From: Octopus sinensis
Taxonomy: Eukaryota
Direction of reading: 5' to 3'
Assembly: GCF_006345805.1 (NCBI RefSeq)
Contig: NC_042998.1
Span: 95,852,001 to 95,916,000 of the forward strand
Length of the DNA: 64,000 nucleotides
The translations under genes and the position numbers were made by a program. The notes beneath the pieces are model-generated. The model made no database searches. It saw nothing but the letters and a program-made list of their open reading frames with translations, and was not told the origin of the DNA. Within the stretch, counting starts at the first letter, position 1, and every line of letters starts with the position of its first letter. Below are positions 912 to 44,500 of the stretch, piece by piece.

Positions 912-1677
912 TTATATATAATTAGGGCTTAGTAAAATAAATTACTTTGCCACATACTGAATTTGCTAGAAATAGCAGCCAAAAAAGTTTTTTTGCCATT
1001 TCCACTACTTAAAGAAAATTTCTCTCAGATAATGTTTACTCAAAATAACTCACGAAGGTATGGAGGTAAAAACAGAAAAATATCACAAGTACAAAGATTA
1101 TTTGAGAACGTTAACGTTTCTAGATTAGCCAAATAAACTCAGCATTTCTTTCGTCAGCTCAACATTTCTTATTTTGGATTTGGAAGCACTAAAAAGAAAG
1201 AACATACCCTTTGGCGACTTATCACCTCAGATGACCCGTTCAGACTGCCAGTACCAACAAATTCAAAATGTGCAAGCGAAGATTCCCTGCTCTCCCCTTC
1301 CACCCACGTGGGTTATCTAGCAAACATTATATTTTAACGGTGAGAACCGAGGCAATATGACAGAGAGAAATGAATTATAATATCAACAATTGAGGGTAAA
1401 ATTAATTAGTTATTAATCAATTTCACAAAGTATTCAGTATGTAAAAGGACCATTTAAGGCGAATTCAAAATATTACATTATATAATTAGGGCTTAGTAAA
1501 ATAAATTACTTTGCCACATACTGAATTTGCTAGAAATAGCAGCCAAAAAAGTTTTTTTGCCATTTCCACTACTTAAAGAAAATTTCTCTCAGATAATGTT
1601 TACTCAAAATAACTCACGAAGGTATGGAGGTAAAAACAGAAAAATATCACAAGTACAAAGATTATTTGAGAACGTTA

Positions 1678-1679
<2 letters not shown>
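912..1679 (-). mobile_element. Non-autonomous hammerhead-bearing element, about 1.35 tandem units of 564 bp (retrozyme/Penelope pLTR-like)
   Basis: About 915-1115 is repeated at about 1478-1679 (position 1106 matches 1670). It starts in (TA)n, contains the hammerhead at 1102-1162, and is homologous to 49302-49905. Confidence 0.7.
1102..1162 (-). ncRNA. Minimal type-I hammerhead ribozyme
   Basis: Minus strand reads ttgag CTGACGA aagaaatgctgagtttatttggctaatcta GAA acgttaacgt T ctcaa. This gives a 5-bp stem I, full core, palindromic stem III and a GUU cleavage triplet. The first stem II pair is an A-A mismatch. Confidence 0.75.
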
Positions 1680-13653: not shown

Positions 13654-13760
13654 GTATTCGCTACGGCAGTACATATTCTAAAATTGGAACGATACAGAGA
13701 AGATTGGCATGGCTCCTGCGCAAGGATGACACGCAAATTCGTGAAGCGTTCCATATTTTT
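13654..13760 (+). pseudogene. RNU6: U6 snRNA full-length copy, probably a retropseudogene
   Basis: 107 nt, GTATTCGCTACGGCAGTAC...ACAGAGAAGATTGGCATGGCTCCTGCGCAAGGATGACACGCAAATTCGTGAAGCGTTCCATATTTTT. The AGC triad reads GGC (13706), an ISL C is T (13714), and no TATA box is present near -30. Confidence 0.92.
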
Positions 13761-15029: not shown

Positions 15030-16860
15030 CAAAATTTTTTCAAGTTTTTAGGCTTTCTTTCACTAAGAACCATAGCTCGATCTGTGATTATATCTTTTAA
15101 TTCATTACTTTGAGCAATGGTTGGTAGATTTGCTTTGGCAATGTTGAAGATATTCTGGTGACATGGGCTGTATGTCACTAATAGGTATGACTTGTTCCTC
15201 TTCTCCTTTTCTTTGGGTTGTTCTCAGTTGTTGTATGGGTATTTTAAAGCCCGCTGTATGCCATTTTCTACAAGTAGAGACGAGTATTTTTGTTTGAGCA
15301 AAAATTCTTTTAGTTCTGTTAGGCGTTTTTTCCTGATATTTGCATTTTCTACAATGGTACAAATTCTTCTGACTAGGCAGTATGTGATGTTGAGTTTTGT
15401 ATATGGTGGGTGGCACGACTTAAAATTCAGGTTTTGATGTGTGTCCGTATGTTTGTAGTATATATCTGTGATAATGGTGGTGTCCTTTTTAATTACCATT
15501 ATATAAATTGGAGAGATGGGTGTAGGTTGTTCAGGAGGATTTTGAACTCTTTCAGAGTATTTAGAGATTCTGTCCAGATTATGAAACAATCGTCAAGGCA
15601 TCTCTTCCATGCCTTTTCGATATAATTTCTAAATCCAGTGCTATAGTTTTCCTCTACTTCTTGGTAGAGTTGTTGTTTTAGATATCCCATTACAGAGTTC
15701 GCGTAAACGGGAGCAAACCTCGTTCCCATCGCCATGTCTTTACCTTGGATGTAATTATTTCCATTGAAGAAGATTGTGTAGTTTTCCAGAATAAGTCTGA
15801 CTGTGTCTAATATAAATAGCACTGTGAATCTGTTGGGGATCACTTCTCTGTGTTTTTCTACCTAGTATCTAATCGCCTTTATTCCTAAAGCATGTGGAAT
15901 ATTGGTGTTGAGGCTTACCACATCAAAACTAAGTAGAAGTGAATTTGTTTCAGTTGTTTTGGGAAGATGGGATTGGAAGTCGATGTCATCCCGGATGAAA
16001 CTGGGTATGTAGGTACATAGTGGTTTCATAACAATGTTAATAAAATTGCTTAGACGGTGGATAGGGCATGCTGGAGCAACTATAATAGGACCTAAGTTTT
16101 AAGTCTTTTGGATGCAATAATTTTATGTACTCACTTTTTTGTTTTTAATGCATGCCGAATATCTTTTTATTTATGTATTTTCGCTAAGCTGTAGAAGTTG
16201 CTGGGTTTTGGTTCGAAATCAGTGATGTAGTCTCTTTCATTATCGGTGAGTTGTGGTGTTTTGAAACAAGGTTTTTGATCTTCTTCATGGTGTGGTGGTC
16301 TATATTTGTAGGAATTTCACAATAGAAGGTTGTGTCCTTTAGTTCGTCCTCAACCAAATCCTTATAGCATTCTGCATCCAGAATAACAATTGCACCCCCT
16401 TTATAGCTTGTTTAATTATTATTGTTTGATCGTTTTGTATACGTTTAAATACAGACATTTCAGATTTGTTGAGGTTTGGCCTAATATTAGTATTGCGTTT
16501 AAGGGAAAATTTTAACAGGGTATCAATGTATTGCTCAAGATAGTGATTTCTTCCTTTTGGTGGGGTGAAGTTTGATTTATTCTTTACTAGGGATTCATCA
16601 ATCTCATTACTATTATTAGTGAAGAATTCTACAATTCGTAACTTACGACAGAATTTTTGGATATCTTCTTTTAGTTCATGGTGGTTGACAGTTGGTGTAA
16701 GTGTAAGTTTCAGTCCTTTTGAAAGAAGTTGGATTTCATCATTGTCAAGATCCCTTTTGGATAAGTTAATTATTTTAGGATTTATATGTTCAGTTGTTTT
16801 GGGTATGTTTCCTCTTGGATTTATTTTTATTTCTCCGGTGTTTGTTGTCCAATCATACAC
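15030..16860 (-). pseudogene. Penelope-like element reverse transcriptase pseudogene (GIY-YIG domain not seen)
   Basis: IINLSKRDL..LLSKGLK, NLNKSE...IIIKQA (DKG-motif region), FDVVSLNTNIP, MAMGTRFAPVYAN, WKRCLDDCFIIW and YYKHTDTHQNLNFKSCHP, with many frameshifts. The 5' end abuts a (TA)/(TG) microsatellite. Confidence 0.85.
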
Positions 16861-16890
16861 ACCATGTATATGTATGTATATGTATGTATG

Positions 16891-16949
<59 letters not shown>

Positions 16950-17054
16950 TTACACATATATATATACATACATAAATAATACATATATACATACAATATA
17001 TATACAAACACACACACACACACACACACGATGAAACGAGCACGTTTACGCATC

Positions 17055-34989: not shown

Positions 34990-35527
34990 GTCATGGTGAT
35001 GGTTTGATGGTGTACTGCTAGCCTCATCTACTATAGCTTCTTAAACCTGGAAAAACCATTACTGCACAAACATATTGCTATGAAATTGTCAAAATGAACG
35101 AAAAACTACCAATCCTCCGCCCCAGACTGGCCAACAGAAGAGGACCAATCATTCTTCATGACAATGCTCGCCTACACGTTTCACTAATGACACTCCAACA
35201 GTTGAGGGAACTTGGCTACGAAGTTCTTCCCCACCCAGCGTATCGCCCAAACGTTTCTCCTACCGACTACCACTTTTTCAAGCACCTTGATGGTTTCCTA
35301 CGAGAGGAGTTCAAAAATCAAACCGATGCTGAAAATGCGTTCAAAGAGTTCATTTACTCCAGAACGCCAGATTTTTATGTTACCGGAATAAATAGACTTG
35401 TAACTAGTTGGCAAAAATGTGTTGATTGTAATGGTACTTACTTTGATGAACAAAATTTTCGCATTGTTGAAATATATTGTGAAGAATTTCATGTTTCAAA
35501 ACGTTGCTTACCTTTTTAACTCAGCCT

Positions 35528-35640: not shown

Positions 35641-36917
35641 CAGACATGCAGGAAGTAAATAGACACCAATAATTTTCAAAATCTTTTATTTAATTCGCAA
35701 AGTGAACAATTGAAATGTAATCGATAGGTAGGACTATTTACTTTAGTGTTTAGTTGACATTACCTTTGCAGTTTTTAATTCAGAAACTCTTTTTGGCATT
35801 GAACTGATGAACTTCGTGGTTGTCTCTTGTGGAATTTCTACCCGCTCTTCACGCAACAATCGAAACAATTCATCTTTAGATTTAGGTTTCTGTCGAGTTT
35901 TTCGTATGACTCTATCTAGTATGCTCCAAAGATTTTCAGTTGGGTTCATGTCAGGAGATTGACTCTGACAAGGAAGCTTTTTGATCCCATTTTCAGTCAA
36001 CCATTGTTGATTCCTTTTCGCTGTGCGGCATGGAGCCCCACCTTCCATGAATAAAAACTCATTTTTTTGTTATGTTATCATGTGAATACATCGGAAGTAG
36101 TCCTTGCTTAAGAATTTCGATGTATTTTTCAGAGTTTATGGTTCCAACACATACATTCGATCAGCTCAGAACGACCACTGATGGTGACAGCTCCTCATAG
36201 CATTACAGAGATACCGCCATGTATTCACAGTTGGTTGGAGTTGTTTCAAATCAAATTCTTGATTGGGAAGCCTCCAAATCCAAACATGTCCACTGTCTGA
36301 AAATAATGCAAATCTGGATTTATCTGAGAAAATCATTCAATACCAAAATGAACTGGATTTTTCTGACATCTCCTTAGCCCATATCTTTGTTTTCATGATA
36401 TTAATTGGTTGAAGGAGAGGTTTTCTTCTAGCTGCTCGTTCATAATACCCAAGCTTATGCAGATATGTAACACATGTTCTTGGACTGACTTCTAGCTGTT
36501 TTGCAATGTCAGAAGCCTTCGAACAGGGTTCGTTTTCCACAATTCTCATCAAACAGCGAAGCTTCCTTTCCGAGGGTCCAGGTCGGCAGGGGCGAGAATC
36601 TGTTGATTCTTTTCCTTGACTTTTGAATTGCACTATAATTCTATTAACAGCAACAAGAGGAATTTGAAGATTTTCGGCAATTTTTCGCTGGCTAAAACCA
36701 GCCTCAGATTGCCCAACAATACGACCTCTTTGAAAATCTGACAGTTCTGTTGAAATTTTTGTGCGTGGCATGGTTACTCTTCGCAAATGTTTAATATAAT
36801 GGCACCTGGAATGAAAAAGTATAATTACATTGTAAATTCTACACCGCTGAAAACATTAAGACACTTAAATCAGAAATTTTGAAAATTAAAGATGTCTATT
36901 TACTTCCTGCATGTCTG
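35641..36917 (-). mobile_element. Tc1-like transposon, full length, transposase (about 36771-35743) disrupted
   Basis: TIRs cagacatgcaggaagtaaatagaca at both ends. [26 protein letters not shown] and QSPDMNPTENLW motifs, with a stop and frameshifts. Confidence 0.92.
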
Positions 36918-41580: not shown

Positions 41581-44500
41581 ATGTCTTACGAAACAAAAAG
41601 GAAAACTACAACAGTACACCAAATCGCTTGTCCTATGGTTAATCTGGAAGCGTGTCCTCCAGGAGAGAGCCAGCCTGGGGTCGAAAGGTCATCCACTGGC
41701 ACAAACTTTTCCCTGGATACGAATCTAGATGGTCACTTGAACGGGAAATACCCCAACTCAAGCCCCCAAGTCCACCACCACACCCATCACAGAAAGAAAA
41801 ATGTAAGAGGATCAAATGGGCCTGAGAAGAGTATACAGAAGTAACATACGCCTATTACTATGCATTAGGTAGGCCATCTGAAGAGAAACACACTGCACAC
41901 TCTTATCAAATATAGAGAAAACAAAATTACGACAGCAGACTATATTTGGACGAAAACAAGTGAGCAAATATTAGGAGAGATATCCTCAAAAATAAAAGAC
42001 TCATAGATAGTGAAATAACCATGATCAAGCACGTAGCGGAAAATGATCTGAATATAAGACAGAAAGGAAATGAAGAACCTGACGAAGAGAGCAACTCTCC
42101 ACGAGTCTCAACTGAAAGACTGTCAACTGACCCGAACACGGAAATGTCTGAAGAAATAAATTGTAATGGACCTGATAAAGATAGCGAGAAAAAGTAGTAA
42201 AGAAACAATATTTGAAGACTACACATTTACTGAAGAACATTGAGAGTAAATGATAGAAATGAAGCAGAAAATCCTGAATATGCTTGCAGTTGTAAGGCAC
42301 GCCCATATGCATGATAGGGAAACACTTCATAAATTCTCAAATATAATCCAAAATAGAAAACAAATTAAATTTGGAAACTATGTAACAAAAGAAATTATAC
42401 AAGAACTAAAACCAGTTCTCATTGAACGAAACAAAATTATTTACACAACTACTAAGACAACTGAAAACAAAAAAATGCAAACCCGAGAAGAAATCCAAAC
42501 TAGAAAAGTAAATTGAAAAAGAGATTCAAATAATGAGAGGTGAAATATCAATATTGAATGAACTAATCTGTGGAAACGAAATAAAATCCAGAAAAGGAAG
42601 AAAGATGAAGAGAAAACAGAGATTCTCACCGAGAGAAGAACTACTTTCAGCAAAAGAAACACTGCAACAAAAGTGCAAGCAAAAGCTCAAGGAACACGAA
42701 TATTTGAGAAGAGAAACAGGTTTTACAATCAAAATAATCTGTTCACATCCAATGCGAAAACATTCTACAGAGAAATAGGGAAGGAGAAGATAACCGTTGA
42801 AGACACCCCCTCCTCCCATGGAAGAAGTTGAAAATTTTTGGAAAAATATCTGGAGTGATGAAAAGGCATACAATGAAAATGCAGATTGGATTAGATGCAC
42901 TGAAGAACCCTACCAAACCTTACAAATATGGGAAGACATCACAATAACAGACCTAAGGTTGGCACACACGAAAGCTCATAAGTGAAAACCCCTTGGTAAT
43001 GATAGGGTGCCAAGCTTCTGGCTCGCATCGGTTCTGTGCGTACGTGATAAGTTAGTCCAGTTATTCAATGAAATTATAAGAGATCCTACGAAAACACCTG
43101 ATTGGTTAACCAGAAGAATATTCCCGAAGAATAATGAAACCAAATTTCCTCAAAACTATCGGCCCATAAACATGTCTACCTATCACGTATGAAATTTTAA
43201 CATCCATCCTCGTGGAGAAAGCATACAAATTTATGGAACAGAACGATATTTTTCTTACTGCACAAAAAGGGTGCCAACGAGGCTCATATCGATGCAAAGA
43301 CCAACTTTTAATCAATCGCATGATCCTCGAGAACTGTCATAACAAACGCAGAAATCTCAGCTCCGCATGGATTGATTATAAAAAGGCCTTTGACAAGCAT
43401 ATCGCATTCATGGATCTTGAAATCGCTGGATATCTTCCAAATCTCTCCTATAATTTCAAACTTCCTGGAGCACAACATGTCAGTATGGAATATGAATCTC
43501 CAATTATACCACCCTAATAGAGTACTGACCACAAAAAAATATTAACTACGGCATTTTCCAATGTGACTCACTTTCATTTTTAATTTATTGCATAGCCCTA
43601 ATACCCTTTACAAGTGAACTGAACAGAACAAGGTATGGATATAAAATTGGCGACAAAAAAATGTCATCTATTTTATATGGATGACTTAAAACTCAACGGC
43701 AAAGACGATATTGTGCTTGAAGGACTATTACGTACCGTGAAAGCATTTAGTGATGACATCGCGATAGAGTTTGGCCTTGATAAATGTGCCAAACTACTTT
43801 CCAGAAGAGGAAATTGAAACCCCACATTCAGTGAGGTTCGGTGTTGATATAGTGATAAAAGAACTCGAACAGAAACAAGCTTACAAATCCTTCGAAATAA
43901 ATGAGGGCTCTGGCATTCAGTATGCAAGCGTGAAAGAGAACATCAGGAAGGAATGTTACAGGAGAGTTCGAGCAGTCCTAAAATCCGAGTTAAATGTATG
44001 TAACAAGGTGTTAACTATAAATTCCTTAGCAGTTCTACTTGTTATTTACAGTTCCAATGTGTTGAACTGGAATATGAGCGAAATAAGGAAGATTGACAGG
44101 AAAATCCGTAAACTGCTGACTTGCAATAAGATGCACCACCCAAAAGCAGACGCAGATCGTCATTACCTACCCACAGCTCAAGGAGGTCGAGGCTTGATCC
44201 TATTTGAAATCCCTTACGAAACCACCACAACTGGACGGGCACAATATCTTGAAACATTTAACGTGTGGATGCTAAATTTCGTTGAAAACCACGAAGGCGG
44301 TAAGGAATTACATTCTGTTATGAAGGAGAGCAAAAAATTTTCAAGTGAGTTTATACATAATATCCAGGTTGAACAGCATGATGGAAATGCTCAGAAACTA
44401 TAAAAATTTGGTAATCGAGTTCGAGAAGATGTGGTATCTCAAGACGGTTACAATACCAGTGATTGTAGGAGTACTTATCATGATAAAAAAAAAAAAAGGA

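Follow-up and report, generated by a model that had tools for sequence, protein, structure and literature searches.

In Octopus sinensis, the 564-nt repeat near the left end of the window (the whole 64,000-nt stretch of contig NC_042998.1 analysed here) appears to be one copy of a real, active-looking family of non-LTR retrozymes with a clear Penelope-type insertion footprint. Compared with one another, the genomic copies display a dispersed family, a conserved motif and predicted fold, a (TA)n target, two start sites (A and B), a rule by which two-armed insertions pair one A arm with one B arm, and read-through of the predicted cleavage site. We think it likely that the window copy is a young member of a non-LTR retrozyme family whose RNA, probably a circle, is copied into cut (TA)n by a Penelope-like reverse transcriptase (RT), with the two target ends using site A and site B respectively. 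Two-ended insertion of the kind seen in Penelope-like elements (PLEs) is very likely, and we infer that a circular template is reasonably probable.

The window copy

The copy and its surroundings comprise the following features, with positions inside the unit given as registers (915 is register 1).

846-914, no strand: left part of the (TA)n target; the (TA)n run spans 846-920
915-1478, minus strand: first full 564-nt unit, with the RNA on the minus strand
1094-1170, minus strand: predicted type I hammerhead motif, core 1102-1162, predicted cleavage 1107/1106
1376-1478, minus strand: 103-nt tail, bounded by start sites B (1376-1380) and A
1432-1526, minus strand: conserved domain in which a closing 11-bp helix (1432-1442 with 1516-1526) encloses start site A (1479-1484)
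1479-1679, minus strand: second, partial turn of 201 nt, identical to the first turn
1678-2247, no strand: inverted copy of the right flank (2268-2815), in the usual place of the B arm
2248-2267, no strand: (TA)n at the palindrome centre

Sequence comparison within the window shows an exact direct repeat, with 915-1115 and 1479-1679 identical at 201/201 positions and a period of 564, in agreement with the preliminary description, which had read the locus as a tandem of a 564-bp unit. That description set the start at 912 and the rejoining TATATA at about 1478-1483; the (TA)n left flank and the internal TATATA are both present, and their exact positions are 915 for the start and 1479-1484 for the TATATA. 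The further stretch of about 200 bp does end 9 nt past the second predicted cleavage site (1671/1670), and of the second hammerhead this partial turn retains the substrate strand only. The unit is non-coding, as had been proposed, with a longest stop-free frame of 66 aa; its GC content of 33% lies below the 45% mark used for non-LTR retrozymes, and an RT plus GIY-YIG open reading frame (ORF), as in an autonomous PLE, is absent from it. Synthesis of the first unit's cDNA would begin at start site A (915) and proceed rightward. The 103-nt tail is internal in this copy and terminal in B arms at other loci.

Elsewhere in the window, a full-length U6 snRNA match (106 bits) lies at 13654-13760 (+), and a long imperfect hairpin at 2838-2912 carries minus-strand GAAA and CTGTCGA in an order unlike that of type I hammerheads. 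A frame at 16339-17052 (-), similar to the protein of locus L243, resembles what we take to be the start of a Penelope ORF, and there are two pieces of what is presumably a Tc1/mariner-like transposase (35037-35519, +, and 36337-36855, -) and a presumably LINE-like piece (43768-44403, +).

A conserved hammerhead motif within a conserved fold

The hammerhead that had been placed on the minus strand at 1102-1162 is supported by a complete type I core, recognized there by its motifs. Read from 1162 to 1102, the minus strand presents helix I (UUGAG), CUGACGA (1157-1151), helix II, GAAA (1120-1117) and helix III, followed by GUU, the predicted cleavage between 1107 and 1106, and CUCAA. Helix I has 5 bp and a distal extension in which 1167-1170 are predicted to pair with 1094-1097; helix II is long and two-part with an internal loop, and helix III, of 3 bp, holds the palindrome ACGUUAACGU. 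The ribozyme had been called minimal, which the long helix II and its internal loop do not bear out, and the motif lies outside the minimal PLE hammerheads as described in PMC4209133, with almost no helix III and a short helix I. Rfam gave no hammerhead family match for the whole window or for 1050-1220, so the evidence for a ribozyme here is the core motif together with its conservation.

Between subfamilies, CUGANGA differs at its free position only (C, U or A), GAAA is kept, and the cleavage triplet is GUU or GUA. Across eight representatives 90.6% of cells pair, compared with 27-49% in slid controls. Compensatory changes occur in helices I and II, two pairs being altered on both sides, and the covariation score, computed from these eight related sequences, was equalled by 29 of 500 shuffles and is not clearly above chance. 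The first pair of helix II is mismatched in seven of the eight, and the AAU/UAA internal loop is retained in four distant relatives with different stems. By motif and conservation, each unit carries a type I hammerhead core, as expected of a retrozyme. The active folds lie above the predicted minimum, by 3.7 kcal/mol at the upstream site (with an 8-bp helix III) and by 8.9 kcal/mol at the downstream site (locus plus flank). The form with a short palindromic helix III is described as needing a dimer for cleavage (PMC4209133), and one of nine predicted Xenopus dimers cleaved (10.64898/2026.07.22.740005).

The cleavage-to-cleavage monomer is predicted to fold better than its shuffles, with z -5.04 on the hammerhead strand vs z -1.58 on the other, and this predicted fold brings both ends together in helix I. 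Compensatory change was seen at 7 of 117 consensus pairs across the unit. Registers 462-564 are about 90% identical in subfamilies whose whole-unit identity is 77-80%, and the conserved domain at 1432-1526 is likely to be a protein-binding element.

A dispersed family with subfamilies

Exact genome searches returned 447 matches to the core 19-mer, 1183 to the 23-mer at start A and 707 to the 23-mer at start B, and a degenerate core motif gave 2482, with 0 matches to reversed control patterns; the 1183 exact start and 2482 degenerate core matches bear out the proposal of a dispersed, multicopy, retrozyme-type family. A first-look genome search gave 2137 candidates, 40 of which were scored. The 160 stretches retrieved were merged into 101 loci, with contig C1 as the main sample; the C1 sample takes in sites listed for three search patterns and is hence a partial census.

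Full units fall into subfamilies 5-21% apart, with an average of 2.2% between loci in the subfamily of the window and periods near 545 and 558 in others, and 92 cleavage-to-cleavage intervals, taken from loci that overlap, measure 537-581 nt. A more distant clade, with 2160 matches to an 18-mer, likewise consists of non-coding tandem units. By eye, loci L272-L301 of this clade seem to obey the two-arm rule of A plus B. A further non-coding, (TA)n-associated repeat (L242:5936-6300 and L260) has a hammerhead motif with the same two-part helix II, whose internal loop ends in UAA; its L260 copy is two-armed.

Two fixed starts and one arm from each

On C1, 73 of 150 arms start at site A (registers 1-6; 915/1479 in the window), 72 at site B (registers 459-470; 1376-1380) and 5 elsewhere, the two sites being 103 nt apart. 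The 16 nt upstream are TA-rich (at least 70% alternating) in 100 of the 145 A/B arms on C1, passengers counted, which supports the earlier identification of (TA)n as the target. It had further been suggested that (TA)n primed through the unit's own UA stretch. The starts are indeed UA-rich, but not any UA stretch will serve: the unit holds seven alternating TA/AT runs of at least 4 nt and starts are used at two spots only, so target homology is insufficient to explain the choice.

Arms occur in tail-to-tail pairs, 76 across all loci. After removal of 16 passenger copies with an identical junction and 7 pairs with an unclassed arm, the 53 independent classifiable pairs comprised 50 A+B, 2 A+A and 1 B+B (P = 5.5e-12), and in subfamilies about 20% divergent the A+B form accounted for 14 of 15 pairs. 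With a second start site and a two-armed form, the earlier view of a single start is incomplete. Formation of the second arm by fold-back of the first cDNA was rejected because arms often span registers missing from their partner. The partial tandem, the inverted truncated arm, the tail at one end and the microsatellite target are all found in the family.

A fixed two-arm fragment, in which registers 466-540 are joined to 134-1, was observed at L121, L122, L125, L132 and L133 on C1. It rides in the long, microsatellite-rich end of a different RT-GIY-YIG element, with 16 copies on C1, and this carrier forms multi-kb inverted arms.

The template of each insertion

When start and end registers and multimers were tabulated across the sample, as had been recommended, two fixed starts and scattered far ends emerged. 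The 103 independent C1 arms (9 broken-chain arms having been dropped) have a median length of 276 nt, and 31 of them exceed one unit, which confirms that copies longer than a monomer occur. Arms that arrive at the cleavage register mostly read through it (65/68), and the 3/68 that stop within 3 nt of it compare with 1.25 expected (P = 0.13). A stop near the cleavage site, previously taken as a signal, is therefore a matter of chance, and given scattered ends and such read-through the window end 9 nt past the site is not special. No combination of end and junction recurs between loci among the 103 arms.

These arm lengths bear on the main rival to a circle, which keeps the PLE-type two-ended insertion and takes as template a linear, uncleaved multimer transcribed from a genomic array, the hammerhead being a passenger or serving some other step. 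With such a median and only 31 of 103 arms above one unit, arrays propagated by linear copying alone would shrink in each round; no parent junction was transferred to another locus, turn-specific variants were not inherited, and the monomer fold joins its two ends in helix I. We consider this reading unlikely, although it fits the read-through equally well, arrays of 3-4 turns are present among the loci, a young array of identical units would also yield common variants, and uncleaved RNA is the chief template of the anole PLE in vitro (PMC11167929). Besides that template use, two further results on the anole PLE speak against our main reading: its hammerhead is dispensable in vitro, and the same starts are used on both strands (PMC11167929).

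Variants common to the parts of one insertion point to one template lineage per insertion, as had been proposed. Inherited minor alleles agree between turns of one arm in 54/68 (79%) and 45/48 (94%) comparisons and between opposite arms in 61/87 (70%) and 21/27 (78%), that is, 70-94% within an insertion compared with 14% between different loci, in comparisons that are not independent of each other and with a concordance that gene conversion or local expansion can mimic. Of the loci tested for private variants, 11 of 29 had such variants in common between their opposite arms and 13 of 37 between turns. Turns are nearer each other than the nearest other locus in 17/53 pairs only; shared variants were used because this nearest-neighbour test is uninformative. 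Turn-to-turn differences in the same direction between loci amounted to 8 recurrences among 184 distinct changes, which is not above the opposite direction. The array at C3:147.2 Mb (4.6 turns) looks locally expanded, four of its turns being 0.2-0.6% apart and the fifth about 2%.

A linear cleaved monomer, from whose 5' end RT would jump to the 3' end of that molecule or of a further monomer, is very unlikely to have been the template. Three arms end at most 3 nt from the cleavage site, with one more in L256, and turn-to-turn concordance is under 100%, as such jumps might produce, but the pile-up of ends is not significant, indels show no excess at the cleavage junction (1 gap in registers 188-197 at about 108 copies per column), and no arm mixing subfamilies was found among the arms compared. 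It is scarcely credible, and at the family level largely refuted, that the tandem is a unique local duplication or an assembly artefact of a satellite-like repeat, a concern raised in the preliminary description, since about 100 separate loci have the same starts, target and two-arm rule and near-identical sequence occurs in independent public runs under several organism labels, even if some arrays appear locally expanded and the adjoining palindrome could be an assembly fold-back.

Public runs guessed to be RNA contain pieces of the unit as assembled contigs. One such contig, in run X3, ends exactly at 1106 and was considered as an RNA end; it was rejected as a graph branch because 1107 is variable between subfamilies.

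A proposed reaction and the palindrome at the window locus

If the template was indeed a circle, the minus strand would be transcribed and would then self-cleave, likely as a dimer or with protein help, and the cleaved RNA would be ligated into a 564-nt circle. A Penelope-like RT-endonuclease dimer may bind this circle through the conserved A/B domain and cut (TA)n, one target end priming at site A and the other at site B; both cDNAs would travel round the template until they stop, and would then join. On such a course the A arm of the window would have run 1.36 turns. We advance only tentatively, as a possibility, the full proposal that on one circular RNA the subunits of a PLE dimer begin rolling-circle reverse transcription at two fixed sites from the cut (TA)n ends. 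If it is true, the tail and inverted arm of PLEs would be traces left by a two-ended reaction that is asymmetric by necessity, the copies of this family would directly document circRNA retrotransposition in an animal genome, and a second end that misses the RNA would copy its own flank, leaving a palindrome as at the window locus.

At the window locus the A arm makes 1.36 turns and a B arm is lacking. It adjoins an inverted repeat (1678-2815) centred on the (TA)n at 2248-2267, which is likely the right part of the original target. The element joins the flank copy with a 2-nt overlap, AC (1678-1679), and the caution that the end of the copy is also the edge of the palindrome was well placed: that end is the junction with the inverted flank copy (edge 1678). 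The unique parts of the two halves are a few substitutions and a 4-nt indel apart, and their microsatellite lengths differ. We think it likely that the second end of the target, folding back on its (TA)n, took about 570 nt of flank as template in place of the RNA; the palindrome could also be an independent rearrangement or an assembly fold-back. For the junction 1679/1680, there was no spanning contig among those listed in four public runs, a result that is uninformative either way.

Flank palindromes in single arms gave 1 clear case, the window locus, among 35. As a general by-product of insertion they were rejected, the second case being an inverted pair of a different hammerhead-bearing repeat. 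A different repeat, present in very many copies and probably the terminal repeat of a Penelope element, has its start at 1678-1747 and 2731-2837; its continuation, as read from public runs and L285, resembles a hammerhead motif on the opposite strand.

Candidate helper elements

Intact RT plus GIY-YIG ORFs of 775-781 aa are present in the genome and look young. The 781-aa family has a cysteine-rich linker before the endonuclease and is Neptune-like, as judged by the description in PMC8557442. Its members run into (TA)n either with nothing in between or by way of a 36-nt tail that duplicates the element's own start, and these two end forms follow the same logic as sites A and B. In this family (L242:674-4377, L255) an ORF of 479 aa overlaps the 781-aa ORF from upstream, and in one copy captured flank forms part of a 1.7-kb terminal repeat.

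The helper search scored 150 of 5029 candidates. No terminal sequence common to the retrozyme and an RT-GIY-YIG element was found beside 30 GIY-YIG loci, 20 longer stretches and 10 flanking stretches, and no autonomous element carrying the A/B sequence was found among the stretches examined. Three candidate leads were set aside. Retrozyme matches near GIY-YIG ORFs (L226/L256, L233/L257, L248), considered as common termini, are insertions in adjacent (TA)n. Extra-deep tail coverage in public runs, followed as a helper clue, led to a non-coding subfamily with a period of about 545, and the distant relatives were rejected as a coding helper, their units being non-coding.

Comparison with known systems

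Retrozymes, their proposed dependence on PLEs, the tail and the inverted arm are already in print. In a search of mainly open literature and main texts, we found no paper on a cephalopod retrozyme, on a rule of one start per arm or on the copying of retrozymes by rolling-circle reverse transcription; the supplements of PMC7229834, PMC8557442 and 10.64898/2026.07.22.740005 may list the family. The return of retrozyme RNA into animal genomes has so far been proposed, not demonstrated, and how PLEs acquire their tandem, inverted and tailed structures is acknowledged as an open question (PMC8557442, PMC11167929); the octopus family links the two. It is also a good test system, offering a short non-coding template, well over a thousand units and a near-strict rule of one A and one B. 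Its starts are mapped, a candidate binding domain is conserved, the genome also contains intact ORFs of candidate helpers, and the questions of circle versus linear template and of dimer asymmetry are directly testable in the existing kind of in vitro system.

Metazoan retrozymes give RNA circles, as shown for mussel and axolotl, and PLEs are their proposed helper (PMC7229834, Cervera and de la Pena 2020). Like metazoan non-LTR retrozymes, the octopus family has low-GC non-coding tandem units with a predicted type I hammerhead whose helix III is short and palindromic, occurs as monomers, dimers and multimers, and is accompanied by PLEs in the same genome. Its units of 537-581 nt compare with circles of 170-400 nt in the invertebrate data of PMC7229834 and with sizes of 51-972 in the preprint of Li et al. 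(10.64898/2026.07.22.740005). It differs in consisting mostly of short, dispersed, two-armed (TA)n insertions with two fixed starts, an anatomy absent from the parts of the main texts of PMC7229834 and 10.64898/2026.07.22.740005 that were examined, and in a long helix II with an AAU/UAA loop.

Endonuclease-bearing PLEs (Neptune, Penelope/Poseidon, Naiad) likewise show partial tandems, an inverted truncated arm and a tail at one end (PMC8557442, PMC3846280, PMC11167929), together with two internal starts, a microsatellite target and a hammerhead motif. Their tail is defined by two internal RT starts; extension takes place on both strands, and the protein is predicted to act as a dimer (PMC11167929). 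In contrast to these elements, the octopus family lacks an ORF and has a tail of 103 nt where theirs has 30-40. Its starts are UA-rich with short target homology, whereas those of the anole PLE are without homology (PMC11167929), and its one-tail rule is near-strict (50/53), whereas the PLE papers, in the parts considered, describe the tail as optional or often at one end.

Among PLE dependants, the closest parallel drawn here is with the non-autonomous Chlamys elements, such as MRC1, which are also non-coding and form multicopy head-to-tail insertions (PMC8557442). As a rule the 3' end of these elements is also that of an autonomous family, whereas no helper match was found for the octopus retrozyme among the stretches compared; and while most Chlamys elements are without a canonical hammerhead (PMC8557442), the octopus retrozyme units carry the type I motif.
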